64,000 nt of DNA from Klebsiella pneumoniae (GCA_945872365.1 CAMBZJ010000014.1:6370-70369); one strand, 5' to 3'; counted from the first letter of the stretch, positions 16,110 to 32,190 are shown. Notes: generated by a model from the letters alone, not told the origin. Numbers and translations: made by a program.

Positions 16110-16112
16110 GCG

Positions 16113-19100
16113 ATGGCCGTGTTGCGTGCACTGATCCGCCCGCTCGCGGCCCTCGCCGCCCTCGGGCTCTTCCTCGCGGGAACGGCCCGAGTCCTGCTCG
16201 ACCAAACCACGTTGCGCGATCGCCTGCGTCCGGCGGCCGAGGCGCTGCTCGGCAAGGTGCTCTCCTCGGAGGTCTCGATCGGAAGGATCGCCGGCGTCGG
16301 CGTCGCCGGGATCGAACTCGAGGACGTCTCGGTCGTGTACGGGGGGGAACCCGCCCTGCAGGTCCCGCGCGCCCGGGTCGGCCTCGCCGTGCAGCGACTG
16401 TTCCCGCCGCGGATCGGGCTCGGTGTCGATCTCGACGACTTCGCGCTCGACCTTCGGCGCGACCCCGCGGGCGAGTGGAACGTCGCGGGAATGTTCGCGA
16501 GCGATTTCGACGAACCCCCGCCGGTCTGGCTGCGCGCGGTGACGCTCGGGCTGCATCGCGGCTCGGCCGCGGTGCACGGCGTCGCCGACCACCCCCTGCG
16601 CTTCCACGATGTCGAGGCTCGCGGCGTGGTCGATCTCGTGGCGGCGGGCGGGCCGCTGCTCGCCGTCGACCGCCTCGATCTCCGCGCGGAAGCGGGATCG
16701 TCGCTCCGTGCGAGCGGTTGGATCGGCTTCGCGGGCGAGACCCCGATGTCGATCGAGCTCTCCGGCGACCCGATCGCCGGCGCGGACCTGCGCCGCTGGG
16801 CTCCGTCCTGGGCCGCCGATCGCGCTGCCACCGGGTGGGCCCTCTTCGACGGATCCCTCGATGCACCAAGGGGCGACGTCCACCTGGCGTCGGGGACGAC
16901 GACGGTCGAGGCGTGGGCCCGACTCGCCGCACCGCCCGACGGGGTGACGGCGCTCGAGCGGCCGCTCTCGCTCTCGGTCGCGGTGCGGGATCTCGACCCG
17001 CGCGTGGTCGCCGCCGATGCGCCCGCGGGCAAGATCTCCGCCGCGGGCTCGCTCGGTGCCGGCCTGGCCGGCGACGGCAGCCTGCGCATGCCGGTGGTCG
17101 AGGCGCGCGCCTGGGCAAGCTCCCTCGGCGAGGTGCGCGCCGACTGGGCCTCGCTGCAGGCGCGTCGCGAAGGCGCGAACTGGAAGATCGCCGCCCAGGC
17201 GGCCGCGCCGAAGGGCGCCTGGCGTGGCGACGCGACCGCGAGCGTCGCCGACGTCGCGCCGCATGCAGCCAGCGCCGAGTTCCGCCTGGAGAGCGACGAC
17301 CCCGGTTCGCTGTCGGCTTCGCTGCGCGAGGCGATGCCCGACGCGGCACTGCGCGTCGAGGGGACGGCGCGCACCGACCGGCTCGACGAGGGGCGAACGG
17401 TCGAGGCCGACCTGCGCCTCGACCGCAGCCGGGTGCGCGGCGTGGTCCTCGACGAGGCACGCGCGAGGCTGCGTGCGAAGGCCGACTTGGTCGAACTGCG
17501 CGACGTGGTGGTGCGCGCCGCCGGCAACGATCTCTCGGGTGCAGGGTGGCTGCGGACCTCGGCGGATCCGAAGCGCCGTGCCCTCGGGGGCGACGTCTCG
17601 GGCACCGCCGACCTTGGCGTGATCCCCGGCTGTTCCGGCCCCGCACCGTTCTCCGCGAAACTGTGGGGCCGACCCGACGATGCGGGCGCACGCATCGACC
17701 TGCGCCCCGGCGGTGCCGTCGACACGCCGGCGGGTCGCGCGCGGCTGCGCGGTTCGATCGACCTCGCCGCCCTCGGCAGCGATCGACCATCGGCGAAGGC
17801 GAAGCTCTCGGGCGGTTTCGAGCCGAAGGGGCCTGCCGGCGAACTGCTCGGGAAGAGCCAGGACGTGGATCTCGCCGGAACATGGGCGCGTGCAGCGGGC
17901 ACCTCCGGCCCTGCGGCACCGTCCGACAGCGGGGACCTCGACGTGACCGCGCACTCGCCCGACGGGCGCCAGCAGCGCGCGGTGCTGCGCTTCGAGCGCG
18001 ACGCGCGTTCGGCCCGCGTCGATCTCTCGCAACTGCGCGTCGCCCCGGTCGAGGGGCCGGCCTGGACGCTCGAGCACCCGGCGAAGCTCGCCCTCGACGC
18101 CGGCGGCCTCGACGTCGGCGCACTCGCCCTGCACACCGGCGCTACGCGACTCGCGCTCGACGGGCGGCTCGTCCGGCCCGGCAGCGATCGGCCCGGTCGC
18201 ATCACCCTCGAAGCGCACCAAGTGGACCTGGGCCCCTTCTGCAAGCTCGCCGGCCGCGGCGAATGCGGCGGCCGGATCGACGCGCACCTCCTGCTCGCCG
18301 GCGCTCAGGCCCGGCCGGAGGTGTCGGGCAGGATCTCGGCCGCGGACCTGTCCTTCGCCGACCAGGTCTTCGGCAACGTGGAACTCGGCCTGCACACCGA
18401 GCACGGCCTCGTCGTCGATGGTCGTGTCGACTCGCCGCTCGGCGGGCACCTGGCGGTGGGCGGCACCGTGCCGCTCGCACCGGGATGGCCGTTGCCGCAG
18501 CCCGCGCTTGAGCACCCGCTCTCGATGCGGGTGCACGGCGAGGAAGTGGACCTCGCAGGACTGCGCGAGTTCGTGCCACCCGGCACGTTCTCCGAGTTGC
18601 GCGGACGCGCGCTCCTCGACGTCTCCGTCGCCGGGTCCGCGGGAGCGCTGCGCTTCTCGGGCGAGGCCAGGGCGTCGGATGTCACGCTGGGACTCGCGGC
18701 GACCGGCATGCGCCTGCGCAACGGCCGGATCGCGCTGCACTTCGCCGGCGATCGTGCCGAGGTCGTCGAGTTCTCGGCGGAAGACGGTAAGCTCACCGGC
18801 GGCGGCCACGTCGAACTCCCGTCGGGCGAGTCGCCCCGGCTCGACCTGTCGATCGACCTCGCGAAGCTCAAGGTCTACGACAAGCCCATCGCGACCGCGG
18901 TGGCGACCGGACGGTTGCGACTGCTCGGCACGCTCGCGGCCCCCGAGATCGAGGGCGACGTGACGCTCGATCCGGTCACGATCCGGCCCTCGCTACTACC
19001 CGGTTCGAGCGGCGCGCAGCGCGACCCGACGATCGTGGTGTGGAACTCGAACGACCCCGGTGCGGTCCGCCCGGGCGACGTCGGCACCGTCGGCGAGGCT

Positions 19101-20090
19101 CTCGAATCCCTCTCGGGCAAGGCTGCGACGGCCTCCGGTCGCGAGGGCGAGACCTACCGGCGCATGCGGGTCGCCGTGCGCGTCCTCCTCGGCGAGAGCG
19201 TCGGCATCCGGCGCAACGACGCCGACATCCGGCTCGGCGGCGAACTCTGGGCGACCAAGGACCCCGGCGACCAGATCCGGATCTCCGGCCAGATCCTCTC
19301 GACCCGGGGCTGGTACGTCTTCCAGGGACGTCGGCTCGAACTCGAGCACGCCTGGGTGACGTTCTCCGGCGAGTCGCCGGTCGATCCCTACCTGAACGTC
19401 GCGGCGATCTACCGCGACGCGCAGTACCGCATCACCGTCGCCGTCCAGGGGACCGCGCAGAAGCCGAGTCTCGACCTTTCGAGCGAGCCGAGCCTAGACC
19501 AGAGTGACATTCTCGCCATGCTGCTGTTCGGAAAGCCGGCTTCGCAACTCACCGGTGGGCAGGGGCAGGGGCTGCAGCAGGAGGCGCTCGGCCTCCTTGC
19601 GAGTTACGTGGCGCCGGGACTCGAGCGCTCGGTCATCGACACGCTCGGGCTCACGAGTCTCACCTTCCAGATGCCGAGCGGGGCCAGCGCCGGGTCGATC
19701 GGCGTCGGCCGCTACCTCGGCGAGGATCTCTTCGTCTCGATCTCGCAGGACCTCGGCGGAAGCCAGACGAGTTCGACGCGCCAGCAACAGGGTCTCGTCG
19801 GCTCCTCGGTGGTCGTGCAATACTACCTGTCGCCGAGCGTGACGATTCAGGGTGCAGCGTCGTCGCAGGGCGAGAGTTCGGTCGACGTGATCTGGCACAT
19901 GCGCTTCGGCGGGGTGAAGGGCGCCGCCACCCCGGCCGCCGAAGGCGGCCCGGAAGCATCCCCGATGCCGTCGGCTCTCCCTTCTCCCGCTCCATCGGTC
20001 GGGCATGCACCGGGCGTCGAGGTTCGCGCCGCCCCACCACCGTCGCCGGCCGTCGCGACCCCGTCGGTCGCACCGTCCCCGCTGCGCTAG
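16113..20090 (+). CDS. tamB: Translocation/assembly module TamB (DUF490)
   Basis: N-terminal anchor, long beta-rich AsmA-like body, DUF490 motifs DPYLNVAA, SSEPSLDQSDILAMLLFG, VGRYL. Confidence 0.85.
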   Translation: MAVLRALIRPLAALAALGLFLAGTARVLLDQTTLRDRLRPAAEALLGKVLSSEVSIGRIAGVGVAGIELEDVSVVYGGEPALQVPRARVGLAVQRLFPPRIGLGVDLDDFALDLRRDPAGEWNVAGMFASDFDEPPPVWLRAVTLGLHRGSAAVHGVADHPLRFHDVEARGVVDLVAAGGPLLAVDRLDLRAEAGSSLRASGWIGFAGETPMSIELSGDPIAGADLRRWAPSWAADRAATGWALFDGSLDAPRGDVHLASGTTTVEAWARLAAPPDGVTALERPLSLSVAVRDLDPRVVAADAPAGKISAAGSLGAGLAGDGSLRMPVVEARAWASSLGEVRADWASLQARREGANWKIAAQAAAPKGAWRGDATASVADVAPHAASAEFRLESDDPGSLSASLREAMPDAALRVEGTARTDRLDEGRTVEADLRLDRSRVRGVVLDEARARLRAKADLVELRDVVVRAAGNDLSGAGWLRTSADPKRRALGGDVSGTADLGVIPGCSGPAPFSAKLWGRPDDAGARIDLRPGGAVDTPAGRARLRGSIDLAALGSDRPSAKAKLSGGFEPKGPAGELLGKSQDVDLAGTWARAAGTSGPAAPSDSGDLDVTAHSPDGRQQRAVLRFERDARSARVDLSQLRVAPVEGPAWTLEHPAKLALDAGGLDVGALALHTGATRLALDGRLVRPGSDRPGRITLEAHQVDLGPFCKLAGRGECGGRIDAHLLLAGAQARPEVSGRISAADLSFADQVFGNVELGLHTEHGLVVDGRVDSPLGGHLAVGGTVPLAPGWPLPQPALEHPLSMRVHGEEVDLAGLREFVPPGTFSELRGRALLDVSVAGSAGALRFSGEARASDVTLGLAATGMRLRNGRIALHFAGDRAEVVEFSAEDGKLTGGGHVELPSGESPRLDLSIDLAKLKVYDKPIATAVATGRLRLLGTLAAPEIEGDVTLDPVTIRPSLLPGSSGAQRDPTIVVWNSNDPGAVRPGDVGTVGEALESLSGKAATASGREGETYRRMRVAVRVLLGESVGIRRNDADIRLGGELWATKDPGDQIRISGQILSTRGWYVFQGRRLELEHAWVTFSGESPVDPYLNVAAIYRDAQYRITVAVQGTAQKPSLDLSSEPSLDQSDILAMLLFGKPASQLTGGQGQGLQQEALGLLASYVAPGLERSVIDTLGLTSLTFQMPSGASAGSIGVGRYLGEDLFVSISQDLGGSQTSSTRQQQGLVGSSVVVQYYLSPSVTIQGAASSQGESSVDVIWHMRFGGVKGAATPAAEGGPEASPMPSALPSPAPSVGHAPGVEVRAAPPPSPAVATPSVAPSPLR

Positions 20091-20677
20091 TCTCGTCCGC
20101 GCGGCCGGCGCTCGAGCAACCACTCGCGCCAGGCGAAGAGCGCGGTCGCGACACCCGGCAGCATGAGCCACGGCCACAGGCGCAGGGGCGCCGGTGCAGG
20201 TGGCTCGACGCGCAGCGTGGTCGTGGTCTCGATCGTCGCGCCGTCGCGCCCGATCGCGACTCGAGCGCGCCAGTCGCCGGCTGCCGGCAAGTCGACGGAT
20301 GCGGCACGCAGGAGCTTGTTCGTCGCCCGTGCCGCGTCCGCCGCAACCGCGATCTCGGCGAGGCCGCTGCCCGAGGGTGGCGACAGGATCAGGGCGACCG
20401 TGCCGTCGAGTCGCGGCGTACCACGCGCCGCATCCTGTAGGAGCACGCTCAGGTCGGCGCGCCCGACGCGCAGGGGGGAAGGCGCACCGAAGAGCGTGAC
20501 GTCGAGTCCGTCGCGGGTGGCGCGCAGGAGTACGGTGCCCCCGTCGGCACGCCCGATACGCGGGGAAGCCAGGAGGGGCGCCAGGACCAGCGCCGTGAGT
20601 ACGAGCGCGGCGCCCGGTGCAGGTACCGTCTGCCCGGCCTTCGGGGGCCGGGTTCGCATCGTCGCGCCGGTTCGCAT
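20087..20677 (-). CDS. Exported Ig-like (YtkA/FixH-like) protein with C-terminal membrane anchor; last gene of the oxidase operon
   Basis: Signal peptide ending GRA-DGG, beta-rich body (PSPLRVG, ATNKLL, LPAAGDW), C-terminal TM. An 18-bp tandem duplication (20651-20683) gives two possible ATGs (20677/20659). Fold assignment is inference. Confidence 0.6.
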   Translation of the reverse strand: MRTGATMRTRPPKAGQTVPAPGAALVLTALVLAPLLASPRIGRADGGTVLLRATRDGLDVTLFGAPSPLRVGRADLSVLLQDAARGTPRLDGTVALILSPPSGSGLAEIAVAADAARATNKLLRAASVDLPAAGDWRARVAIGRDGATIETTTTLRVEPPAPAPLRLWPWLMLPGVATALFAWREWLLERRPRGRD

Positions 20678-20853
20678 CGTCGCCTTCGCCCCGGACTCCG
20701 AAGCCCTTGTGCGGGAGGGGCCCGCAGGACTCTCAGGGTCCTCGCTCCGCCGCTGGTTAGCCCGTGCGACGACGCCGCGAAAGCCGGCCCGCGACGGGGC
20801 CCGGCCTGCGCGGGGTCCGCGACCCTCGGTGCCTCCCCCCGCGTGGAACGCGC

Positions 20854-23190
20854 TCAGTGCACCATCGTGCCGCGCATCTGCATCGGCTGGAGCAGGATCC
20901 ACACGCCGCAGCCCCACAGGCTCCAGGCGAGGATCGCCCATGGCAGGACGGCACCGACGGCGGCGCGCGGGCTTCGCGCGAGGGAACGGGCGATGCGCCA
21001 GGCGACCCAGAGCGTCGCGCAAAGTCCCGCGTCGAGCAGCAGGAGTTTCGCCGGATCGAGCCAGCCCGCGGCGGAGCCCCGTGCCGCGCTCCAGTCGGGC
21101 GGGCCGAGCCGCGCGAACCAGGTCGGCGCCACCGCTTCGAGCGCGCGGCGCGCGACCGGCACGATCGCACCGGCACCGGTCGCGAGGTGGAAGAGCAGGT
21201 GGGCCGCCCACATGCCGACGCCGATCGGCACCAGGGCGAGCGCGAAGCGGCAGGCGAGATCCCGCGGCCGTGCGTCCAGTTCGCCCATACGCCGCGACAG
21301 GAAGGCGCAGGCGGTCACGGTCGCGAGCGGCAGGACGGCGAGTGCGGCCGGGATCCAGGCGCTCCGCAGGAGCGAGTTCGCCACGGCGCTGCCATCGCCG
21401 ATCGGCACGCCCGCCCCGATCATGCCCGCCGCGTTCGCGAATGCGGCGAACACGAAGACCAGGACCAGGGCGGCGAGGTCGGGGCGGCGCGAAGGACGCC
21501 CGATCGACGATCGCCGCGCGTCGCCCGGGAGTTCCGCGAGCGGTGCGCGTGCGACGAGCCCGATCGCGTCGTGCGGACAGGCGCGTACGCAGTCGAGACA
21601 GAATGTGCAGTCGAGATTGCCCGTCTTGCGCGGCAGGAAGAGTTCGGTCTCGCAGCCGCGGCTCGCGGGGCTGCCGCGCAGGCACTCGCGGCCGGTGCAG
21701 GAGGCGCAGGCATCGGGGCGCTGCACCGCGACCACGAATGGCGAGACCGTCGAGGCGACGAAGTTCCACTGCCCGATCGGGCAGACCCACTTGCAGAAGG
21801 CGGCTCCGCGGAAGGCCGCATCCACCGCGAAGGCCGCCGCGAAGTAGCCGAGCACCAGCCACGCGGTCGCACGCGGCGCATCCCACGGAGCGGCTGCTTC
21901 GTAGCCCCAGAACCAGGCGATGAGGAGTACCGCGGCGAACCACTTGCCGCGCAGTCGGCGCGGCCAGCGCGCACGCAGTCGGTCGGGGAACGCACGCTTG
22001 GCGATCTCGCGCGGCAGGACGAACGGGCAGGCGAAGCAGAAGACGTTGCCCGCGACCAGCAGGAGGAGGATCGAGAGCCCGCGGAACCAGGTCCACGGCA
22101 GGACGCCGGCGAGGTTCATCGGCGCCATCGCAGGGCCGCGCAGTCCGTCGGCGACGATCGCGACCGCGAGCCCGAGAGTCGTCGCCTGGGCGACCCGTCG
22201 CGTGACGCGGTGACGCAGGACGCGGCCCAGGACGGGGACGCGCAGCAGGTCGAGGCCGTCGCCGCGCCGACCGTCGGGCGGCGTGGTCGCTCGTACCGCG
22301 CCCGGTCCGCCGCCGTACTTGCGCCGGGCGACGGTCGGGTGCGGCTCGTCGGACCGCTGCGGTGCGAGCAGGCGCGCGACGACGAGTGCGGCCGGCACGA
22401 GCATGGCGACCTGACCCGGGACCCACATCAGGGCCCCGGCGAGGTGCTGGTCGCCGAGCGCGGTCGTGCCGAAGAGCCGCGGCGCGGCGGCATAGGTCGG
22501 GTAGAGCACCCGGTCGGAGAAGGCGAAGATCGCGCACAGGGCGGTGTTCTGCAGGTCCGCCAGCAGGAGCATCGGCGGGATCGCCCAGCGCGGTGTCGAG
22601 TCGAGGGCCGGCCATGGCCGGATGACCGGGAACCAGAAGAGGAGTGCGCCGGCGAGAAACGTCGCATGCTCGACGCGGTGCCAACCGGCGTCGCGGAGTG
22701 CCAGTTCGTAGAGCTCGGGTGCATGCCATGTCCAAAGCGCGAGAGTGAAGGCGAGCAGGCCGACCACCGGGTGGGTGAGCCGGTGCGAGAGGCGTCGCAG
22801 CTCGGGGGCGGCGAGAAACGGTCCGATCGCGCGTGCACCTGCGACCGGCAGCCCGCGCAGGAGCGGGATCGCCGGGGCCGAAAGCCAGGTGAGCGGCGGC
22901 ACCACCATGACGAGCAGGAAGTGCTGCGCCATGTGCACGGTGAGGAGAAGCCCGGAGAGTGCCTCGAGCGGCGAGGCGATCGCGACGAGCAGCATCGCCG
23001 CGGCGGCCGCGAACGCGGCGAGACGAAAGGGGGGGAAGCGGTCGGGGCGCTGGCGGTGCAGCGCCCACCAGCCGCGCGCATAGACGGCGACGCCGAGCAG
23101 GATCGCGGCGGTGCCGAGCGGCGGAAAGCTCCAGGAGCCGAGTGCGGCCGCGAGAACGGCCGGGGCGTCGCTCGCCGGGGTCGGATCCAC
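20854..23190 (-). CDS. Cytochrome c oxidase caa3 assembly factor CtaG fused to a FixG/NapH-like membrane 4Fe-4S domain
   Basis: CtaG motifs HMAQHFLL, WHAP..Y..AL...WH..EH, DQHLAGALMW. Then FCFACP, FCKWVCP, CASC...C...GC and CTFCLDCVRACP, plus further TM helices. GTG start near 23190. Confidence 0.85.
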   Translation of the reverse strand: MDPTPASDAPAVLAAALGSWSFPPLGTAAILLGVAVYARGWWALHRQRPDRFPPFRLAAFAAAAAMLLVAIASPLEALSGLLLTVHMAQHFLLVMVVPPLTWLSAPAIPLLRGLPVAGARAIGPFLAAPELRRLSHRLTHPVVGLLAFTLALWTWHAPELYELALRDAGWHRVEHATFLAGALLFWFPVIRPWPALDSTPRWAIPPMLLLADLQNTALCAIFAFSDRVLYPTYAAAPRLFGTTALGDQHLAGALMWVPGQVAMLVPAALVVARLLAPQRSDEPHPTVARRKYGGGPGAVRATTPPDGRRGDGLDLLRVPVLGRVLRHRVTRRVAQATTLGLAVAIVADGLRGPAMAPMNLAGVLPWTWFRGLSILLLLVAGNVFCFACPFVLPREIAKRAFPDRLRARWPRRLRGKWFAAVLLIAWFWGYEAAAPWDAPRATAWLVLGYFAAAFAVDAAFRGAAFCKWVCPIGQWNFVASTVSPFVVAVQRPDACASCTGRECLRGSPASRGCETELFLPRKTGNLDCTFCLDCVRACPHDAIGLVARAPLAELPGDARRSSIGRPSRRPDLAALVLVFVFAAFANAAGMIGAGVPIGDGSAVANSLLRSAWIPAALAVLPLATVTACAFLSRRMGELDARPRDLACRFALALVPIGVGMWAAHLLFHLATGAGAIVPVARRALEAVAPTWFARLGPPDWSAARGSAAGWLDPAKLLLLDAGLCATLWVAWRIARSLARSPRAAVGAVLPWAILAWSLWGCGVWILLQPMQMRGTMVH

Positions 23191-23201
23191 CGCGTCGGCT
23201 G

Positions 23202-24677
23202 CTAGCGCCCGGGCGGCGCCGCGGGGGCTGCGCCCGGCCGGCTCGCATCGCGCGCCGCGGGCTGGTTGGCGGGTCGCAGGGTCTCCATGAACGCGACCAG
23301 TGCCGTGACCTCGGCCGGACTCAGGTTGCGGCCGTAGGCCGGCATGTTGCCGCCGCCCTGGATCACCTGCCGTATGAGTTGGTCGCGGGTGAGCCGGGTG
23401 GCCACGCCGTCGAGAGCCGGGCCGCGCTGGCCGCCCTCGCCGCCGAGCGCGTGGCAGTTGCGGCATTGCTTGGACTGGAGGACCGCGGCACCGCGCAATT
23501 CGAGCGGGCTGCGGCCGCGCACGTACTCGACGGGCGTGGGCGCGCCGCTCCATGCGTCCATGACCGGCGACCAGGGCGAGGTGACACCGAGCTTCGTCAG
23601 CGTGACCAAAGTGACCAGGACGAGCAGGACGGCAAGCACCGACATCGGGCGTGCCTTCCAGCTCTTCTCGCCGGTGCCGAACAGGAACGGCAGCCCGAAC
23701 AAGAGCCCGATGCCGACGACCGGTGCGACCAGGATGAGCGCCGTCTCCATCCACGGCGGCAGCAGCGCGAAGGCCGCGAACAGCGACAGGAAGAAGAAGT
23801 CGGGGCGGGGCACGGTGCGGATGAGTGTCGGGTCGGGCACGCCGTTGGGTCCGATCGGCCCGAAGATCGCGGCGCAGGCGACGACGGAGAGGGTCGTGAT
23901 CCCGGCGAAGACGAGGTCGCGCTGGGCCGCGTCCGGGAAGAACGGCACGCCGTCCTCGTGGACGAGGCGCTCGTAGTCCTCGCGGTAGGTCTCCCGCCGC
24001 ACCAGGCGACCCGGCATCGGCCATTCGTTGATGCCGAGCTTCAGCACCAGCAGAAGATGCAGCCCGACGAAGGCGAAGAGCAGTCCGGGTACGACGAAGA
24101 CGTGCAGCGTGAAGAACCGCGACAGGGTCTGCGCCCCGATGATCGGCCCGCCGAGCATGAGGTGGACGAGGTAGGGGCCGACCAGCGGCACGCGCGCGAT
24201 CATCGCCGCACCGATCCCGAGACCCCAGTAGGCATCCTGGTCGAAGCGCATGATCTGGCCGGTGAAGGCCATGCCCAGCGTGCTGAAGAGCAGGATCACG
24301 CCGACGATCCAGGTGAGTTCACGCGGGTACTTGAAGGCCCCGAACAGGAATACCTGGACGAGGTGGATCGTCATCATGCCGATCATGAAGTTCGAGCCCC
24401 AGCCGTGCAGCGCGCGCAGGAACCAGCCGAGTGGCTGCTGGTAGTTCAGCCACTCAAGGCTTGCCCACGCTTCGCTCGCCGCGGGCGCATAGACCAAGGC
24501 GAGACAGATGCCGGTCGCGACCTGCAGGAGGAAGAGCACCAGCGTCGCGCTGCCGAAGACGTACCACCAGCTCGCCGTGTCGCGCGGCACGGCGTGGCCG
24601 AGCACCGGGCCGAGTGCCGCGCCCAGGCCCAGACGTTCCTCGAGCCAGCTGCCGATCGATGCGAGGCGTGACTTCAT
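23202..24677 (-). CDS. Cytochrome b (b6 + subunit IV-like) fused to a C-terminal monoheme cytochrome c
   Basis: Heme b His pairs LRALHGW...TIHL and TLHVF...GLHL, YPRELTW, Qo motif PDFF, C-terminal CRNCH...GNMP. Confidence 0.93.
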   Translation of the reverse strand: MKSRLASIGSWLEERLGLGAALGPVLGHAVPRDTASWWYVFGSATLVLFLLQVATGICLALVYAPAASEAWASLEWLNYQQPLGWFLRALHGWGSNFMIGMMTIHLVQVFLFGAFKYPRELTWIVGVILLFSTLGMAFTGQIMRFDQDAYWGLGIGAAMIARVPLVGPYLVHLMLGGPIIGAQTLSRFFTLHVFVVPGLLFAFVGLHLLLVLKLGINEWPMPGRLVRRETYREDYERLVHEDGVPFFPDAAQRDLVFAGITTLSVVACAAIFGPIGPNGVPDPTLIRTVPRPDFFFLSLFAAFALLPPWMETALILVAPVVGIGLLFGLPFLFGTGEKSWKARPMSVLAVLLVLVTLVTLTKLGVTSPWSPVMDAWSGAPTPVEYVRGRSPLELRGAAVLQSKQCRNCHALGGEGGQRGPALDGVATRLTRDQLIRQVIQGGGNMPAYGRNLSPAEVTALVAFMETLRPANQPAARDASRPGAAPAAPPGR

Positions 24678-24690
24678 TGCGGTCGTCCGA

Positions 24691-25284
24691 TCACAACGGC
24701 TGGGTCAGCGTCGGGATCTGGCCGCCGCGCACGACGAGTTGGCCGTCCTCCAGCTTGTACTCGTACTCGTAGAGGCCGCGCGGCGGCGGACCCGAGGCGC
24801 GTTGCCCGTCCTCGTAATAGGCGCCGCCGTGGCAGGGGCACATGAAGAGCCCCGACTCGGGGAACCAGCGCACCGGGCAGCCGAGGTGCGTGCAGTTCAC
24901 GGCGAAGACCTGGAAGCTCGTGTCGGAGATGCAGCGCACCCAGCAGGGAATGTCGGCGGTCACGCCGTCCCAGGGCACGACGAAGGGATTTCGGTAGGTC
25001 GCGAGCCGCGTCTGTCCGACCGGAAATCCCGTCGCCGGGCCGAGCGGGATCCAGGCCTGCCAGGCGCGGCGGCGCATCGGCGCCAGGACATAGCCGACGA
25101 GCGGGAGAGCGAAGGCCGCCGCGGCGACCGCGTTGATCGCGAGTCCGAGCTTGAACAGGAAGCCGCGTCTGTCGACGGGCGGTGGCGGCACGAGGGGCGC
25201 TGTCGAGCCGCCCGAACCATCGGGCCGGAGCGCGTCCTGGCGCGGGATTCCCGCGGTGCCTGTGGTGTCCGGATCACGGGACAT
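24691..25284 (-). CDS. Rieske 2Fe-2S subunit of the Rieske/cytochrome b complex
   Basis: Tat motif DRRGFL plus TM; boxes CTHLGC and CPCHGGAY; GPPPRGL. Confidence 0.93.
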   Translation of the reverse strand: MSRDPDTTGTAGIPRQDALRPDGSGGSTAPLVPPPPVDRRGFLFKLGLAINAVAAAAFALPLVGYVLAPMRRRAWQAWIPLGPATGFPVGQTRLATYRNPFVVPWDGVTADIPCWVRCISDTSFQVFAVNCTHLGCPVRWFPESGLFMCPCHGGAYYEDGQRASGPPPRGLYEYEYKLEDGQLVVRGGQIPTLTQPL

Positions 25285-26092
25285 CTTCGCTCCTCGCGGT
25301 CGTCGTGGTCGTTGTCGTGGCCCCCGTCGGCGCACTCGGGCCTGCCGCCGGTGCCGCTGCACCCGGCAAGGCGATCGGCGCCGGTCGTCGGGCTGCGATC
25401 CAGGCGACGACGTCGGAGACCTGTTCGGCGTCGAGCGGCCGTGCGCCACCCTCGCCACGCCAGTCCGGCATGCCGAGATCCGGGCGACCGACGACCACCG
25501 CCGTGCGCAGCGCCCGGTCGCTCGTGAGCGACAGCCAGGACGGGTCGACGACCGAGCCGCCCTTTGCGCCGCCGTCGCCGTCGGTGCCGTGGCAACCCGC
25601 GCAACTCGCCTGCCAGACCGTCGCGCCGCGCGCGGCGTCACCGGTCGCGGCCGCGTCGATCGGGGGTGGGGGCGGCGTCACGTCGCTTGCCCAGCGCGCG
25701 CGCATTCCCCGGGTCAGCAGGTCGACCTGGTGGTCGGTGAGCGTACCGCCGTATTCAAGTCCGAAGGCCGGCATCGGCGTGCCGGGGATCCCGCGCAAGG
25801 TCAGGTCGCGGATGGCCGCGTCGCTCGCAGCGGCGAGGTAGACCGGGTCGCCGAGCGGAGTCGACGAGCCGAGTTTGCCGTCGGCCCCGTGACAGCCGGA
25901 ACAGTTCTCGCCCCACAGCACGGCGAAGTCGGTGACCTGCGTCGGCGCGAGCGGTCGATCGGCCTCGCGCGGCCGGCCCGGCAGCGAGTCGCAGCCCGCG
26001 ATCGCGAGTACCGTGCCCAGCACCGTGGCCAAGGCACTGCGGCGCGCATGGTCGCGTCTTCCCGGCCCCGTGTGTCGTTGCGCCCGCCGCAT
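25274..26092 (-). CDS. Di-heme cytochrome c lipoprotein (CcoP/QcrC-like)
   Basis: Lipobox LAIAGC; CSGCH...TPMP and CAGCH...GMP (His/Met-ligated class I domains). Confidence 0.88.
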   Translation of the reverse strand: MRRAQRHTGPGRRDHARRSALATVLGTVLAIAGCDSLPGRPREADRPLAPTQVTDFAVLWGENCSGCHGADGKLGSSTPLGDPVYLAAASDAAIRDLTLRGIPGTPMPAFGLEYGGTLTDHQVDLLTRGMRARWASDVTPPPPPIDAAATGDAARGATVWQASCAGCHGTDGDGGAKGGSVVDPSWLSLTSDRALRTAVVVGRPDLGMPDWRGEGGARPLDAEQVSDVVAWIAARRPAPIALPGAAAPAAGPSAPTGATTTTTTTARSEDVP

Positions 26093-26943
26093 CACGCGTC
26101 GTGCTTCCCCTCGCCGAAGCCCGCTGCCTCCACGCCGGCGCGCGCCGCGAAGGGCAGTCCCTGCAGGGTCGAGATCTTCTCGGTGCGCGCCACGAGCCAG
26201 CCGGCCGCGAGTCCGAAGCCGATCTGGGAGGCGACGAACCACGGCCACTCGATGCGCCGGTTGAGCGCCGGATTCAGGACGCCGAGCACGGCCCACAGCA
26301 GGCCGCTCCACAAGAGCGGCGCGAGCAGGCCGCCCACGGCGGCCGGGTGGCGCGGGATCATCGGCAGGATGAGCGCATAGAGCAGTCCGACCACGAGGGA
26401 GGCGGCAAGGTGGATCGCGCTCGCGACGGCGAAGGCCGTAGGATCGAAGGCCTCGAGGGTTGCCGTGCCGGCCGACGCGAGCGTCGGCATCGCTGTCGCG
26501 GCGAGCAGGTTGATCGGATACCAGGGGCTCGAGTGGCCGAGCAGTCCGAAGCCGACGGCGAGCAGCGCCATGACGCCCGCACCGAGGAGACCGCCGCGCA
26601 GCCCGGCCGACCACGGGTGGACCTCGACCGGCAGCCGCATGCGGTGGCCGTCGCGTCCGACTTCGAGGTGCTCGACGACGACGGTGGACCGGCGCACCGG
26701 CTGCGCGCGTTCCGCCGCCGGTCGCAGGGCGATCTCCTCGAGGCGTTGCTGCGGCAGGACATCGCGCAGCCAGCCCGCGCCGGCAACGGCGAAGAGCGCC
26801 GCGCCGGCGAGGCTCACGACGGCGTTGGTCACGAGCCCGGCGAAGGCGAGACAGATCCCGGCGGCAAACAGCATCGGCCATGCGGTCGGGGCGGGCATCG
26901 GGATCGAGTCCCGCTCGTTCGCGCGTCCGGTCGCCATCGCCAT
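26092..26943 (-). CDS. Oxidase-associated membrane protein; N-terminus resembles COX subunit III helices I-II / CtaF
   Basis: GAGGAGG RBS; IPMPAPTAWP followed by two TMs ending GWLRD, then about 4-5 more TMs; TGATG overlap with the next gene. Confidence 0.7.
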   Translation of the reverse strand: MAMATGRANERDSIPMPAPTAWPMLFAAGICLAFAGLVTNAVVSLAGAALFAVAGAGWLRDVLPQQRLEEIALRPAAERAQPVRRSTVVVEHLEVGRDGHRMRLPVEVHPWSAGLRGGLLGAGVMALLAVGFGLLGHSSPWYPINLLAATAMPTLASAGTATLEAFDPTAFAVASAIHLAASLVVGLLYALILPMIPRHPAAVGGLLAPLLWSGLLWAVLGVLNPALNRRIEWPWFVASQIGFGLAAGWLVARTEKISTLQGLPFAARAGVEAAGFGEGKHDA

Positions 26944-26948
26944 CCTCC

Positions 26949-27536
26949 TCAGCGCCCCAGGTAGACGACGGCCAACACCGCCACCCACACCGCGTCGACG
27001 AAGTGCCAGTACCACGAGAGAACCTCGGCGTGCTCCGCATGCTCCGCCCCGAGCCTGCCGCGCAGGGCCGCGCCGAGTACGAAGGCCAGCATCGTGAGGC
27101 CGAGCGTCACGTGCAGGGCGTGGAAACCGACGAGCGCGTAGAAGGTCGTCCCGAACAGGTTGGTCGCGATCGTGAGACCGCGTCCGAAGATCAGCTCGCG
27201 CCACTCCAGCGCCGTCGCGGCGAGAAAGCTCGCGCCGAGCGCGATGGTCGCGAGCCACCAGGTGCGAAAGGCACCGTGCAGGCCCGCGCCCAGCGCCCGC
27301 ACCGCGAGCGAGATCGTGACGCTGCTCGACAGGAGGCAGATCGTCGCGAGCAAGGGCGTCGAAAGCACGTCCGCCGGCTGCGGACCGGTCGCGCTCTTCC
27401 CGCGGTAGAAGAGGTAGGCCACGATGAACACGCCGAAGAAGGAGGTCTCCGCCGCGATCAGGCACGCCATCCCGATCCGGCCCTTCCATGCGTGGAGATC
27501 GTCGACGGCCTCGGCGTCGTGCGCGGAAGCGATCAC
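26949..27536 (-). CDS. ctaE: Cytochrome c oxidase subunit III (short, 5-TM type)
   Basis: LIAAETSFF, LLSSS, FYALVGFHALHV, WYWHFVDAVW; GTG start overlaps the subunit I stop. Confidence 0.92.
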   Translation of the reverse strand: MIASAHDAEAVDDLHAWKGRIGMACLIAAETSFFGVFIVAYLFYRGKSATGPQPADVLSTPLLATICLLSSSVTISLAVRALGAGLHGAFRTWWLATIALGASFLAATALEWRELIFGRGLTIATNLFGTTFYALVGFHALHVTLGLTMLAFVLGAALRGRLGAEHAEHAEVLSWYWHFVDAVWVAVLAVVYLGR

Positions 27537-29215
27537 TCCCACCTCCCGTCGGGATCGTCGGGGTGCTTCAGGTCCCAGAGCGGGCGGCGGCTGTGCACGG
27601 TCGGCACGCTCTCGAAGTTGTACTCGGGTGGCGGCGAGGTCGTCGCCCACTCGAGCGTCCATGCGTCCCAGGGGTCATCGCCCGCAGGGGCGCCGGCGCG
27701 CAGCGACGACACCACGTTCCACAGGAAGAAGAGCAGTCCGATCACCTGGACGGCGACGCCGAGCGTCGTCACCATATTCCAGATCTCCCAGCCGCGTCCC
27801 GGCTGGTAGGTGTAGATCCGTCGCGGCATCCCGAGCAGTCCCGGAACGTGCATCGGCAGGAACGTCAGGTTGAAGCCGAGCACGAACCAGAAGAAGTGGA
27901 GTCGTCCGAGCCGTTCGTCGAGCATGCGCCCGGTCGCCTTGGGGAACCAGAAGTAGATCGCGGCGAAGAGATTGAACAGGAGACCGCCGATCAGCATGAA
28001 GTGGAAGTGTGCGACGACGAAGTAGGTGTCGGAGAGCTGCCAGTCGAAGGGGACGACCGCGAGCATGACGCCGGTCAGGCCCGCGATCACGAACTCGAGC
28101 AGGAAGGCGGTGCACCAGAGCATCGGCACCCGGAAGCGGATACGCCCGCCCCACATGGTGCCGAGCCAGTTGAAGATCTTGATGCCGGTCGGCACGGCGA
28201 TCGCCATCGTCGAGGCGGCGAAGAAGGTATTCGTGGCCGGGTCGAGCCCGACCGTGAACATGTGGTGGGCCCAGACGCCCATGCTGATGAAGCCGATGCA
28301 CACCGTCGCGGCGACCATGACCGGGTAGCCGAAGAGCGGCTTGCGCGAGAACACCGGGATGATCTCGCTCGCGATCGCGAAGGCCGGCAGGATCAGGACG
28401 TAGACCTCCGGGTGCCCGAAGAACCAGAAGAAGTGCTGCCAGAGGACCGCGGAGCCACCGGCCTGGGTGTCGAAGAAGTGCGCGCCGAGGAAGCGGTCGA
28501 AGAGCAGCATGACCTGCGCCGCGGCGAGGGGCGACAGGATGAAAAGCACGAGCGCCGCGTCCACGAGCATGATCCAGACGAAGAGCGGCATGCGGCGCAG
28601 CGTCATGCCGGGGCATCGCATGGTCAGGATCGTCGTGACCAGGTTGATCGCGGTCGCAGTGCTGCCGACGCCGCTCAGGAGGATGCCGAGGATCCAGTAG
28701 TCGGTCGAGTTGCCGCGGGAGAAGGCGCGCGAGGTGAGCGGCGCATAGGCGAACCAGCCGACGTCCGGCGCGCTGCCCGCGCCGTAGAGTCCCTCCGCTC
28801 CGAGGAAGCTGAAGTAGAGCAGGAGCCCGCCGAACAGGAACATCCAGAAGCCGAAGGCGTTGAGCCGCGGGAAGGCGAGGTCGCGCGCCCCGATCTGCAG
28901 CGGGACGAGATAGTTCGCGAAGCCGAAGAACATCGGCATCCCGACGAAGAACACCATCGTCGTGCCGTGCATCGTCATGAGCCGGTTGAAGGTGTTCGGC
29001 CCGAGGAAGCCGTTGAGCGGCACGGCGAGCTGGATCCGCATCAGGGCCGCCATCGAGCCCGCGACCAGGAAGAAGACCAGGGCCGAGGCGATGTACATGA
29101 GCCCGAGCCGCTTGTGGTCGACGGTGACGACCCACTCGTGGAGTCGCGCGGCCAAGGGCAGGCTCTCGCCTTCGCCCGTCCGCACCGTGTCGATGCTCTG
29201 TCCGAGGACCGCCAT
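27533..29215 (-). CDS. ctaD: Cytochrome c oxidase subunit I, A1-type
   Basis: DHKRLG, MHG, GHPEVY, WAHHM, PTGIKIF (K-channel), AHFH, GMPRR. Confidence 0.97.
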   Translation of the reverse strand: MAVLGQSIDTVRTGEGESLPLAARLHEWVVTVDHKRLGLMYIASALVFFLVAGSMAALMRIQLAVPLNGFLGPNTFNRLMTMHGTTMVFFVGMPMFFGFANYLVPLQIGARDLAFPRLNAFGFWMFLFGGLLLYFSFLGAEGLYGAGSAPDVGWFAYAPLTSRAFSRGNSTDYWILGILLSGVGSTATAINLVTTILTMRCPGMTLRRMPLFVWIMLVDAALVLFILSPLAAAQVMLLFDRFLGAHFFDTQAGGSAVLWQHFFWFFGHPEVYVLILPAFAIASEIIPVFSRKPLFGYPVMVAATVCIGFISMGVWAHHMFTVGLDPATNTFFAASTMAIAVPTGIKIFNWLGTMWGGRIRFRVPMLWCTAFLLEFVIAGLTGVMLAVVPFDWQLSDTYFVVAHFHFMLIGGLLFNLFAAIYFWFPKATGRMLDERLGRLHFFWFVLGFNLTFLPMHVPGLLGMPRRIYTYQPGRGWEIWNMVTTLGVAVQVIGLLFFLWNVVSSLRAGAPAGDDPWDAWTLEWATTSPPPEYNFESVPTVHSRRPLWDLKHPDDPDGRWE

Positions 29216-29228
29216 GCTCTCCGTCCCC

Positions 29229-30197
29229 CTAGCGCAACGTGAGCAGGAAGGTGGTCAACTGCTCCACCTCCGCGTCCAGGAGTTTCATCGCCGGCATGAG
29301 CACTCCCGGCTTGATCGCGTGGGGGTCGACGATCCATCCGCGCAGCTTCTCGCGGGTGTTCGGAGCGGCGCCTGCGGCGATCGTCTCGCGCGACATGAGA
29401 TGCGTCAGGTCGGGGCCGAAGGTGCCGTGGGCACCGGTTCCGCCGAGCGCGTGGCAGTTTACGCAGGAGGTCGATTCGAAGATCGCCCGCCCGGCCGCGA
29501 CCGCCGGGTCGCGCGCCTCGGGCTGCTTCTGCGCCGCCACCCAGGCCGCGAAATCTCCGGGCGTATCGACGACCACGCGCAGCAGCATGTTCGCATGCTG
29601 GGTGCCGCAGAATTCGGCGCACTGCCCGAGGAAGGTTCCGGTCTCCGTCGGCTCGACCCAGGTGTGGTTCGACCGGGCGGGGATCACGTCGGTCTTGCCT
29701 GCCAATTGCGGCACCCAGAAGCTGTGGACCACGTCGGCCGATTCCAGCGTGAGGAAGGTCGGCCGCCGTTCGGCGGCGTCGCTCACCGGAACGTGCATTT
29801 CGTTTGCGGTCACGATTCCGAGTTCGGGATAGCGGATCTCCCACCACCACTGGTGGCCGACGACGGTCGCCTGGAGTGACCCGGGGGGCGGCACCATCGC
29901 CTGCACGTCGTAGATCGTGCGCGCGGTCGCGAGGAAGAGCACGAGCACGATGAGCGCGGGGACGAGCGTCCAGGCTAGCTCGATCTGGTTGCTGCCGTAG
30001 ATCTGAGGCGGCTCGCGGTCGTCGCCGGGGCGGGCGCGGAAGCGGACCACGCACCAGAACAGGATTGCCGCAACCGCGAGAAGGATGCCGGCACTGATCC
30101 CGATGACCAGCCAGGAGAGATCGCGGATCGCCTCGGCCGGTGCCGAGACCGGCGAGAAGATCCCCGGGATCGGGTGCAGGGGCGCGCCGGAGTTCAA
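29229..30197 (-). CDS. ctaC: Cytochrome c oxidase subunit II with fused cytochrome c (caa3-type)
   Basis: Two TMs, GHQWWW, CuA ligands DVVHSFW and CAEFCGTQHANM, heme c CVNCH...LMP. Confidence 0.95.
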   Translation of the reverse strand: MNSGAPLHPIPGIFSPVSAPAEAIRDLSWLVIGISAGILLAVAAILFWCVVRFRARPGDDREPPQIYGSNQIELAWTLVPALIVLVLFLATARTIYDVQAMVPPPGSLQATVVGHQWWWEIRYPELGIVTANEMHVPVSDAAERRPTFLTLESADVVHSFWVPQLAGKTDVIPARSNHTWVEPTETGTFLGQCAEFCGTQHANMLLRVVVDTPGDFAAWVAAQKQPEARDPAVAAGRAIFESTSCVNCHALGGTGAHGTFGPDLTHLMSRETIAAGAAPNTREKLRGWIVDPHAIKPGVLMPAMKLLDAEVEQLTTFLLTLR

Positions 30198-30248
30198 GAT
30201 GCCTGCTTCCCCATGGGCCCTCCGGCCGTCGCTCGACGACCGAACTTG

Positions 30249-30278
30249 GGTCTAACCCCGCTCGCGCGGGCAAGTCAA
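30249..30278 (-). promoter_or_regulatory. Candidate sigma70-type promoter of the respiratory operon
   Basis: Minus strand TTGACT-N18-TAGACC about 50 bp upstream of the subunit II start; the -10 is imperfect. Confidence 0.35.
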
Positions 30279-30351
30279 AAGGCCACCGGCACCCGGCGTC
30301 GTCACGCCTCGCCGTCCGCCGGCGCACCGGTTCGCGGAGCGCCGGCCGGGC

Positions 30352-31044
30352 TCAGGGCGGTGGCGGGATCTCGGCGAAAGCCTCGACCCAGCGAGCGCCC
30401 GGCATGTAGATGGTGCGCGCCGCACCCAGCCCGCGGACGACCCGGAGGTAGTCGTTGTAGGCGAGCTGGCTCGCGTAGCGGGCGATCGCGCGCTCCTTGC
30501 GCTCCCAGACGGCGCTCACGTCGAGCACGTGCGTCGCGTGCACGGGAACCCACACGTCGTAGGCGAAGCCGCGCGGCCGCCCGGGTCCCCAGGCGGCGAG
30601 CACCTCCTCCACGACCCGCCCGAGTGCATGGTGGTCGGGATGTACGTCGAGGCGCGGCGGGGCGTAGACGATCTCGGCGCGACTGCGCTCGATCGCCGTG
30701 CGGACCGCCGCGTGCAATTCGCCGCCGCCACGCTCGAGGATCCCGCGCAGGTCGCCGTCGGGGAATTCCCAGAAGACCGGTGGCGATGCGCCCAGGTCGC
30801 CGGCCGCCGTGCGGGCCTCGGCGCGGCGGAGTTCGCGGTAGTCGACGTCGGCGAAGCGCCCCTCGGGGTCGCCGAGTGCGCCGTCGGTCGCGATTGCGAT
30901 CGACACCGGATCGCCCTGCGCGAGGTGGAGGGCGATCGCGCCACCGCAGCCGATCGTCTCGTCGTCGGGATGCGGCGCGAGCACCAGAACGCGACCGCCC
31001 TCGGGCGTCGCGCGCGGTTCGGGAAGGGGAACGGGACCGGGCAT
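30352..31044 (-). CDS. PIG-L/LmbE family deacetylase
   Basis: APHPDDETIGCGG, RRAEA, HPDH, YASQL. Confidence 0.92.
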   Translation of the reverse strand: MPGPVPLPEPRATPEGGRVLVLAPHPDDETIGCGGAIALHLAQGDPVSIAIATDGALGDPEGRFADVDYRELRRAEARTAAGDLGASPPVFWEFPDGDLRGILERGGGELHAAVRTAIERSRAEIVYAPPRLDVHPDHHALGRVVEEVLAAWGPGRPRGFAYDVWVPVHATHVLDVSAVWERKERAIARYASQLAYNDYLRVVRGLGAARTIYMPGARWVEAFAEIPPPP

Positions 31045-31092
31045 GCATCCTCTCTCGTCGGTTCGTTTCGGGGCCGCCCTCGCGCCGGCCGC

Positions 31093-32190
31093 TCAGAAGA
31101 TGTCGGTGTCGCCCATCGTGTAGTGCCACGCGCGGCGCACCGCCGCATTCGGACCTCGGGTCTCGCCGTCCTCCCATAGGCTGGTGAGAAACGGGCTCAC
31201 GCCGGTGGCGAAGCCGCGTCGGGCGAGGATCTCGCGGTCCGGCGAGGTCGCCGGCAGCCAGGCGCGCAGCACCGGGAGGCCCGACTCGCGGGCGATGGCG
31301 CGGGCCCGGTCGAGGAGCGCCCGCCAGGCGGCGTTGGCCGTCGAAGATGGCGGGACGACCCAGTCGACGACGGCCGCGAGCGAGTCGTGCGGCCAGCCCG
31401 GACGCAGCACGAGCAGCCCGAGCGGGCGCCGCGTCGCGCGGTGGCGTGCGAGCAGCAGTGCGTAATCGACGTCGGGACAGTCGGCGTAGCGCCAGCCGAG
31501 GTAGCGCGCGTCTCGCTCGACGGCGACCGGGTAACGCACGCGCGCACGCGCCCACAGCCCATCGACCTCCGCCGGAAAACGCTCGACCCGCTCGACGGCG
31601 ACCAGCGCGTCGTGGAGGCGTGCCGCCAACGAGCGCGACGCATGACACGCACCTCCCGTGCCCGCCTGCGCGGTCGAGGAAAGCGACCAGGTCTCGACCG
31701 GGGCGACCGCCTGCATATCGTAGAGACCGCGCTGGATCCGGTGGATCTCCTCGAGGTTGAAGCCATACCAGGTGGTGCCGGGTGCGGTTGCGACGAAGCG
31801 GCGGTGGAACGCGCGCGCCATCGTGGCGTAGGCGCCGCGGCGGTGCAGCGCCGGATCGACCATGTGGTCGAGAAGCTGCGAGAGCATCGCGTCGCGCCCC
31901 TCGATCCGGGCGCGGTTGGGCAGTGCGGCGAACTGTCCGGCGATGCGACCGTCGCGGTCGACCGCGACCAGCACCTCGCGGCCGGCCGGGTTGTCGAGGA
32001 ACTTCCAGCGCCAGTGCTCGACCGAGCGTTCGACGCCGAACACCCGGCGAAAGAGGTCGAGGATTCCGGTCTCGTCGCCGGGGCGCCATTCGCGCACCGT
32101 CACGACGGCCGTATCGTCTCCGTGGGTCGCGATGCTCAAGGCCTGTCCTCGGCCGCGGCGCTCCGCGACCGGTGGACCGTCGCGCCGCAC
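31093..32190 (-). CDS. GNAT family N-acetyltransferase (tandem GNAT, polysaccharide-locus type)
   Basis: WRWKFLDNPAG, DHMVDPALHRRG, YGFN, RDARYLGWRY, C-terminal GDTDIF. Start uncertain (TTG 32139 possible). Confidence 0.75.
   Translation of the reverse strand: MRRDGPPVAERRGRGQALSIATHGDDTAVVTVREWRPGDETGILDLFRRVFGVERSVEHWRWKFLDNPAGREVLVAVDRDGRIAGQFAALPNRARIEGRDAMLSQLLDHMVDPALHRRGAYATMARAFHRRFVATAPGTTWYGFNLEEIHRIQRGLYDMQAVAPVETWSLSSTAQAGTGGACHASRSLAARLHDALVAVERVERFPAEVDGLWARARVRYPVAVERDARYLGWRYADCPDVDYALLLARHRATRRPLGLLVLRPGWPHDSLAAVVDWVVPPSSTANAAWRALLDRARAIARESGLPVLRAWLPATSPDREILARRGFATGVSPFLTSLWEDGETRGPNAAVRRAWHYTMGDTDIF

Follow-up and report, generated by a model that had tools for sequence, protein, structure and literature searches.

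The window analysed here is a stretch of 64 000 nucleotides (nt) of DNA (GCA_945872365.1, CAMBZJ010000014.1:6370–70369). Nine genes on its minus strand, at positions 20087–30197, encode a full respiratory branch from quinol to O2 together with putative copper-loading helpers, as judged from translations of the open reading frames (ORFs). The G+C content of the window is 70–75% and long spurious ORFs are therefore abundant in it; genes and starts were chosen by third-position G+C and by start codons adjoining the preceding stop. The nine genes are as follows, with lengths in amino acids (aa).

Gene 1, 29229–30197, minus strand: ctaC, cytochrome oxidase subunit II with a fused cytochrome c (COX2-c), 322 aa; COX2_TM, COX2 and Cytochrom_C domains.
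Gene 2, 27533–29215, minus strand: ctaD, subunit I (COX1, A1 type), 560 aa; PF00115 at 537 bits.
Gene 3, 26949–27536, minus strand: ctaE, short subunit III (COX3), 195 aa; PF00510.
Gene 4, 26092–26943, minus strand: putative ctaF-like membrane subunit (memX), 283 aa; weak matches of orthologues.
Gene 5, 25274–26092, minus strand: diheme class I cytochrome c lipoprotein, QcrC-like, 272 aa; two cytochrome c domains.
Gene 6, 24691–25284, minus strand: Rieske 2Fe–2S protein, 197 aa; PF00355.
Gene 7, 23202–24677, minus strand: cytochrome b–c fusion, 491 aa; Cytochrome_B and Cytochrome_CBB3 domains.
Gene 8, 20854–23190, minus strand: CtaG–ferredoxin fusion, 778 aa; PF09678 at 173.5 bits.
Gene 9, 20087–20677, minus strand: putative YtkA-like beta-sandwich protein, 196 aa; PF13115 matches of orthologues, and fold.

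Seven of the nine proteins were confirmed by Pfam and NCBIfam. Genes 1–8 are closely packed: the GTG start of ctaE lies on the stop of ctaD (GTGA), the membrane-subunit and diheme cytochrome c genes overlap as TGATG, the diheme cytochrome c and Rieske genes overlap by 11 nt and the remaining gaps are 5–13 nt. No promoter-like site was found in a scan of 19800–31300, and terminator-like sites occurred there at the shuffled rate (three against a mean of 3.4). The heme-c motifs in the translations are CVNCH, CSGCH, CAGCH and CRNCH. An earlier account of the window made before any database search (the sequence-only reading) had described nine same-strand genes with these coordinates and overlaps, and these were borne out by the ORFs, the third-position G+C and the choice of starts; its description of a complete quinol-to-O2 redox set, with tethered c hemes only and an assembly module, likewise held for the cluster.

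Relatives were sought by scanning species-representative genomes with an alignment of the cytochrome b–c protein. About 1700 matching stretches were estimated, and 584 of the 600 examined were confirmed as relatives. Synteny was followed by local tblastn of the nine proteins in the 80 best loci among those examined (more distant forms may differ), and for genes 1–7 only loci with at least 5.7 kb upstream (67) were counted. Genes 1–7 kept the same order and strand in all 67, an arrangement well above chance, and the gene order given in the sequence-only reading thus proved to be a conserved one. In 66 of 74 loci, CtaG lay downstream at a distance of no more than 1.5 kb; locus L055, in which CtaG overlaps the end of the cytochrome b, was left out of this count. 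Locus names are depositors' labels and their grouping was made in this analysis: 58 of the best 80 loci were acidobacterial, four Binatia, four Deltaproteobacteria/Proteobacteria, two Thermodesulfobacteriota and two Myxococcota, and the other ten carried other names or none.

The nearest labelled relatives were Binatia-type metagenome-assembled genomes (MAGs), and the nearest outside the family were mostly from Acidobacteriota. The full-length cytochrome b–c was present in 17 of 19 same-family genomes (of the other two, one had contig-end fragments and the other gave no match). Elsewhere in the class no more than a few genomes had the fused protein, and the ctaF-like profile was unmatched in 200 other genomes sampled across the phylum of the window. 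This patchy distribution suggests that the cluster may have spread by lateral transfer. DNA near-identical to 20087–30086 (77–96% of sampled words) was found in 20 public runs from nine studies, labelled mostly as lake or freshwater metagenomes and also as marine plankton and sediment ones; none was recorded as RNA.

Genes 1–3 encode an oxidase of the caa3 type. Subunit II matched TIGR02866 (CoxB) at 173.9 bits against a cut-off of 147.7 and contains the CuA pattern H...CxExC...H..M; its Cytochrom_C domain (residues 233–321), carrying CVNCH, defines the type. Subunit I matched TIGR02891 at 715 bits (cut-off 670.75) and contains the motif GHPEV, which we take to be the signature of the A1 subfamily. 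Subunit III is a short five-helix form matched by PF00510 at profile positions 114–254 only, and its best NCBIfam match was aa3_CtaE_Actin (104.8 bits, under the cut-off of that model).

In the product of gene 7 a b6-like N-terminal half and a subunit IV-like C-terminal half are followed by a C-terminal class I cytochrome c that carries CRNCH. Among solved chains, those nearest to the N-terminal half were of cytochrome b6 (E = 2e-45), compared with ∼1e-34 for bacterial bc1 and 1e-18 to 1e-21 for actinobacterial QcrB. Four His residues (H91, H105, H192 and H207) are invariant in the orthologue alignment and their spacing is presumably that of the b6 type; unlike in Bacillus b6c, there is no Cys at what we take to be the heme ci position. 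The b–c fusion was kept in all eight orthologues aligned. The Rieske protein has a twin-arginine signal (RRGFLFKL) and the motifs CTHLGCP...CPCHGG, and its best NCBIfam matches were b6f PetC models, under their cut-offs. The CPCHGG form of the Rieske motif is linked to lower potential, and low-potential Rieske systems of the PDWY type are linked to menaquinol.

The motif at the quinol-oxidation (Qo) site of the cytochrome b is PDFF (23796–23807, minus strand; residues 292–295), and its context rPDFFFL aligns with kPEWYFL in the mitochondrial cytochrome b; among relatives the motif reads PDFF, PDFY or PDFW. In the survey of Kao and Hunte (2014; PMC4122944), 96% of cytochromes b have Trp as the third residue, and a second-position Asp (PDWY) is tied to Rieske proteins of low to middling potential. 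PDFF, with Phe in place of Trp, lies outside the six major patterns given there. The genome examined, which is 97% complete, encodes MenB (454 bits against a cut-off of 343) and MenA (202 bits against 102) side by side; no MqnA was found in it, and for proteobacterial UbiA the best match reached 73 bits where the cut-off is 275. The substrate is likely to be menaquinol, as the sequence-only reading had supposed, because MenA and MenB are above their cut-offs, no proteobacterial UbiA is, the Qo motif has an Asp and the Rieske protein has CPCHGG.

The signal peptide of the diheme cytochrome c ends in IAGC, which resembles a lipobox, and the translation contains no C-terminal helix. The protein matched bc1_QcrC_actin over residues 17–238 (E = 1.6e-10; 40.7 bits against a cut-off of 200). 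Its nearest solved chains were actinobacterial QcrC (E = 7e-7 to 4e-6), 6adq_C being aligned across both domains. At least two CxxCH motifs were present in 67 of 67 orthologues; the strict lipobox pattern was found in 43 of these, and each of the ten exceptions displayed showed a signal peptide and then a Cys.

The family of gene 4 is large, with 2102 representative clusters at E ≤ 1e-3 and 294 at 1e-30, and among the automatic names given to Atlas clusters that resemble it is `cytochrome aa3 subunit 4 family'. PF12270 (Cyt_c_ox_IV) was weakly matched by 18 of 24 orthologues at E ≤ 1 (best E = 9e-4) and by a distant homologue at 26.8 bits, the cut-off being 26.9. When compared with the PDB, the family profile found the N-termini of Rhodobacter and mouse COX3 (E = 0.055 and 0.066, respectively). 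A model of the protein (predicted local distance difference test score, pLDDT, of 80) aligned with residues 81–135 of 6adq_H with a VIA-align Z of 5.9 and with the N-terminus of plant COX3 with a Z of 5.6; we take chain H of 6adq to be CtaF, and the CtaF helices to stand in the place of transmembrane helices 1–2 of COX3. The N-terminal hairpin of gene 4 would then match the C-terminal one of actinobacterial CtaF, as well as the two opening helices of seven-helix COX3, which are absent from the short COX3 of this cluster. This equivalence is rated as somewhat probable and no higher because each match is under ordinary significance for helical hairpins. For the four-helix C-terminal bundle no fold stood out as a relative (Foldseek E ≥ 0.1; VIA-align Z values no higher than 6.8, within the noise for helical bundles), and profile–profile comparison of the gene 4 family found nothing in the short ctaE family (probability 0.6 as scored) or in the COX4_pro protein of the same genome (probability 0.1 as scored).

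Residues 35–275 of gene 8 are a Bacillus-type CtaG, the PF09678 score exceeding a gathering score of 27.7; against the equivalog TIGR02737 the protein scored 54.5 bits (cut-off 279). Residues 374–544 resemble NapH/MauN (TIGR02163; E = 8e-8, 32.1 bits against a cut-off of 213), and there is also a C-terminal helical domain. Twelve Cys residues are invariant in 15 fused homologues (CxxCP, CxxxCP and eight in two cluster-type motifs), a pattern like that of the NapH/CcoG family with its two 4Fe–4S clusters, and the invariant His and Met residues comprise HMxQH and HxxEH in the CtaG part and HxxxH and MxM in the C-terminal helical part. The likeness to CcoG/NapH comprises CxxCP-type motifs near the membrane, two 4Fe–4S-type Cys motifs and a genetic link to a heme-copper oxidase; the gene 8 domain differs in being fused to CtaG and in apparently serving an A-type oxidase. 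The C-terminal half of gene 8 resembles stand-alone Fer4_5 proteins (466–513 aa) of Acidobacteriota, Chloroflexota and Actinomycetota. The fusion adjoins the cytochrome b in 17 of the 80 loci, with one more partial match lying 8.6 kb off, and most Terriglobia-type loci have CtaG alone.

The product of gene 9 has a signal peptide and a C-terminal membrane anchor. PF13115 (YtkA) was matched by eight of 22 orthologues (best E = 1.1e-6). The model (pLDDT 88) is a beta-sandwich with the copper protein CrdA as its best fold match (E = 2.7e-5, template-modelling score 0.74–0.76), followed by P19/FtrA, PmoD and FetP. Homologues were detected in 21 of the 80 loci, and in six loci, all Acidobacteria-labelled (L017, L018, L019, L039, L076 and L087), CtaG and the YtkA-like domain form one ORF with a common stop, a single polypeptide that parallels the CopD–YtkA fusion of Bacillus YcnJ. 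According to PMC13344008, the Bacillus subtilis YtkA-domain lipoprotein CtaK is implicated in building the CuA centre of caa3 oxidase, YcnJ is a CopD domain joined to a YtkA domain and CcoG is a cupric reductase, a dedicated one being discussed as missing from Firmicutes. From these roles and the features of genes 8 and 9 we infer a module for copper reduction and insertion, in which CtaG would load copper together with a NapH/CcoG-like two-cluster membrane ferredoxin, the presumed reductant of Cu(II) to Cu(I), and with a periplasmic domain of YtkA-like kind.

A cluster of this kind has been published. Trojan et al. (2021; PMC8407424) describe a `bc1-A1 caa3 superoperon' in cultured Acidobacteria, with transcript levels, and propose that such clusters may work as respiratory supercomplexes. 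Their Data Set S1 lists consecutive ctaC, ctaD, ctaE, ctaF-like, petC, petA, petB and ctaG for strains KBS 83 (two copies), TAA 43 and TAA 166, and the seven genes ctaC–petB, with no ctaG, for Acidobacterium capsulatum; ACP_2435–2442 is among the published loci. The name ctaF-like for the counterpart of gene 4 is theirs, and that of gene 5, the diheme cytochrome c, is listed as petC. Abundant soil Acidobacteria are reported there to express this branch as their low-affinity oxidase route. The present cluster shares with the superoperon its gene order, the A1 subfamily and the caa3-type c domain on subunit II, and Acidobacteria-labelled loci with full synteny are 60–67% identical to it in cytochrome b; orthology to ACP_2435–2442 and the other published loci was drawn through these Acidobacteria-labelled MAG loci. 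It differs in its host lineage, whose nearest labelled relatives are Binatia-type MAGs, and in having the CtaG–ferredoxin fusion and a separate YtkA-like gene. Very probably, the cluster is a further instance of the published acidobacterial superoperon in a high-GC diderm, forming one self-contained menaquinol-to-O2 branch.

The sequence-only reading had instead inferred a hybrid supercomplex that matches neither the actinobacterial nor the Bacillus architecture, with similar clusters perhaps present in other uncultured lineages; taken further, it would be an unprecedented complex, new to the literature and found in uncultured lineages only. The mixture itself is real, a b6-like cytochrome b (E = 2e-45) being combined with a QcrC-like cytochrome c (E = 7e-7) and a caa3 oxidase, and no biochemical or structural study of it was found in the literature search. 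The eight genes in this order are nevertheless on record from cultured Acidobacteria, complete with transcriptomes and a supercomplex hypothesis (PMC8407424), and clades in which cytochrome b is fused to a class I cytochrome c were described in 2014 from Acidobacteria, Planctomycetes, Nitrospira, Verrucomicrobia and Firmicutes (PMC4122944); most of the best 80 loci, moreover, carry acidobacterial names. The claims that the cluster is undescribed and restricted to uncultured lineages were thus not upheld; of the proposed hybrid matching no known architecture, the combination of parts stood and the lack of a published match did not, and such an unprecedented complex is now most improbable. Three further sources were silent: the main text of Hausmann et al. 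(2018; PMC6018796), to which Trojan et al. refer for superoperons of this sort, gave no match when searched for them; the available text of a review of III–IV (complex III–complex IV) supercomplexes (PMC8361435) mentions neither Acidobacteria nor caa3; and that of the paper on Binatota genomes (PMC8262859) speaks of complexes I and II, alternative complex III (ACIII) and complex IV and not of this cluster. What is new here is modest, namely the host lineage and patchy distribution, the CtaG–ferredoxin and CtaG–YtkA fusions, the PDF[FYW] motif, the CtaF/COX3-hairpin reading and the evidence for gene 9 as a putative copper-protein-like YtkA domain.

Other characterized systems share some of the parts. 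Like the actinobacterial bcc–aa3 complex, the cluster has a QcrC-like diheme c, a five-helix CtaE, a candidate CtaF-like hairpin and menaquinol as the likely substrate, and the order ctaE ... qcrC-like, Rieske, cytochrome b is that implied by the name of the actinobacterial ctaE–qcrCAB operon. The differences are that the cytochrome b is b6-like with its own c heme, that subunit II has a c heme, that the diheme c is lipid-anchored and without a C-terminal helix and that the host is a diderm with small cytochromes c. None of the NCBIfam actinobacterial cut-offs was reached (scores/cut-offs in bits: QcrC 40.7/200, QcrB 112.9/500, QcrA 20.1/275, CtaC 141.7/250, CtaD 648.9/880 and CtaE 104.8/190). 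With the menaquinol:cytochrome c reductase (b6c) and caa3 oxidase of Bacillus it has in common the b6-like spacing of the His residues, a subunit IV part that ends in a c heme, the caa3 subunit II, a Bacillus-type CtaG (PF09678) and a putative YtkA-like domain (CtaK in Bacillus); QcrB and QcrC are split genes in Bacillus, whereas they are one polypeptide (a single 491-aa ORF) here, and the extra diheme c, the extra ferredoxin domain on CtaG, the arrangement in one cluster and the diderm host are further differences. The ACIII–caa3 superoperons and the solved ACIII–aa3 supercomplex of Flavobacterium johnsoniae likewise bring a quinol module and a caa3-type oxidase together in diderms, with association proposed or shown; the quinol modules are unrelated (ACIII versus Rieske/b), and the oxidase lies downstream in the ACIII order.

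Electrons from menaquinol oxidized at the PDFF Qo site would pass to the Rieske cluster and then to the c heme fused to cytochrome b, from there to the two hemes of the lipoprotein cytochrome c and the c heme on subunit II, and finally through CuA and heme a to heme a3–CuB, so that the c hemes used would all be membrane-tethered. As an alternative, the diheme c may take electrons straight from the Rieske cluster, as QcrC does. By analogy with the actinobacterial bcc–aa3 complex, the parts may sit together as a III–IV supercomplex; the CtaF-like subunit, the five-helix CtaE, the QcrC-like diheme c and the gene order are the grounds for the analogy, and we hold it tentatively, as falling just short of probable. 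Actinobacteria, which lack small c cytochromes, have an obligate III2IV2 supercomplex with cytochrome cc, and a bc–oxidase–c supercomplex has been isolated from Bacillus PS3 (PMC8361435).

The same genes would also suit a bc complex and a caa3 oxidase that are co-expressed and physically separate, the operon securing their stoichiometry and the diheme lipoprotein acting as a two-dimensional shuttle on the membrane surface, like cytochrome cy and the lipoprotein cytochromes of Bacillus. The lipid anchor as the only attachment of the diheme c, unlike that of QcrC, would fit such a shuttle; membrane-anchored c shuttles are established (PMC8361435), the other oxidases and cytochromes c of the genome imply branched electron routes, and no physical evidence of a supercomplex was found in the literature search. 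Against it, the diheme c gene lies between the oxidase and bc genes in all 67 loci, four tethered c hemes in series exceed what a shuttle needs, and the actinobacteria-like parts (CtaF-like and QcrC-like) form an obligate supercomplex in Actinobacteria. A shuttle is nonetheless quite possible.

The wider genome bears on how far the branch stands by itself. A second A-type oxidase is encoded at G000:C3:112646–120157 (L091:4646–12157) by COX1, COX3, COX4_pro and a CuA subunit II; near it are SCO1/SenC and a UbiA-family prenyltransferase that is probably the heme O synthase. The genome also encodes proteins like cytochrome c peroxidase and further c-type proteins. The Rieske/b module might use its fused c heme mainly to supply acceptors other than the caa3 oxidase, such as periplasmic enzymes or the second aa3 oxidase, with adjacency to the caa3 genes being only genomic: the second CuA oxidase needs a donor, and the peroxidase-like and other c-type proteins are present. 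The gaps of no more than 13 nt and the overlapping start and stop codons across genes 1–8, the invariant synteny and the co-transcription of the homologous cluster in Acidobacteria (PMC8407424) speak for a common function with the caa3 oxidase, and service to other acceptors is an improbable main role.

Several observations weigh against a self-contained branch organized as a supercomplex with its own copper-loading module. Subunit II of the second oxidase has no c domain and therefore needs a separate donor. A second Rieske/b complex (G000:C47:912–6292; L092) comprises a Rieske protein of 189 aa, a split b6 of 256 aa and a subunit IV of 218 aa, along with an 835-aa membrane cytochrome c with eight CxxCH motifs (a multiheme stretch of four and four class I domains); most genomes of the class have a similar b6-like match. 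Small monoheme class I cytochromes c are encoded by three ORFs (C6, C20 and C40) that have signal-peptide-like N-termini, judged by eye, and no lipobox Cys; one small cytochrome c (C10) is of lipoprotein form. The statement in the sequence-only reading that no soluble cytochrome c is encoded is consequently correct inside the cluster and not for the rest of the genome, which has at least three such candidates. With these oxidases, Rieske/b complexes and cytochromes c the respiratory chain is branched, unlike that of Actinobacteria, and obligate use of the present branch is unsupported.

Within the cluster, a 176-nt gap separates gene 9 from gene 8, and the proteins of genes 4 and 9 themselves had no family match in Pfam or NCBIfam. 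All of the CtaF/COX3-hairpin matches are under the usual significance, and the family calls rest on orthologues and low scores. Gene 8 did not match the CcoG model of NCBIfam and its NapH score is far under the cut-off. The gene 9 alignment contains no conserved His, Met or Cys, which makes copper binding by the YtkA-like domain doubtful. No purification or structure of a complex of this type was found in the literature search. Three of the 12 long gene 4 homologues scanned (P0070, P0037 and P0069) run in frame into a diheme cytochrome c; these memX–cytochrome c fusions were considered as Rosetta-stone evidence and set aside, since they are singletons on one contig each retaining signal peptide and lipobox and may be frameshift or gene-call artefacts.

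The diderm nature of the host, which the sequence-only reading had assumed, is borne out by the genes that adjoin the cluster: a TamA-like Omp85/POTRA protein (693 aa) and TamB (1325 aa) are encoded at 14028–20090 on the plus strand, convergent with gene 9. On the other side, 154 nt upstream of ctaC, a PIG-L family deacetylase (230 aa) and a GNAT acetyltransferase (365 aa) lie at 30352–32190 (minus strand), with no evident link to the cluster. The E1 (974 aa) and E2 (424 aa) components of 2-oxoglutarate dehydrogenase are encoded at 9613–13808 (minus strand).

In its fullest form, the supercomplex reading would make the cluster an obligate III–IV supercomplex of diderms tied to actinobacterial bcc–aa3, in which four tethered c hemes would link the Rieske cluster to CuA as a fixed wire, the CtaF-like six-helix subunit would dock the diheme c and perhaps the bc dimer onto the oxidase, and the CtaG–ferredoxin and YtkA-like proteins would be a dedicated cupric reductase and insertase of A-type oxidases, one not recognized before. 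We regard this fuller scheme as possible and somewhat doubtful. The recurrent CtaG–ferredoxin and CtaG–YtkA fusions point to an unstudied route of copper delivery for A-type oxidases, and the actinobacteria-like parts list (the CtaF-like and QcrC-like proteins and the ctaE ... qcrCAB-like order) provides a concrete structural hypothesis. A cultured carrier would allow a direct test of the supercomplex question. As the module is widespread in soil Acidobacteria, an obligate supercomplex of this kind, if real, would be a major and structurally unstudied route of respiration in soil.

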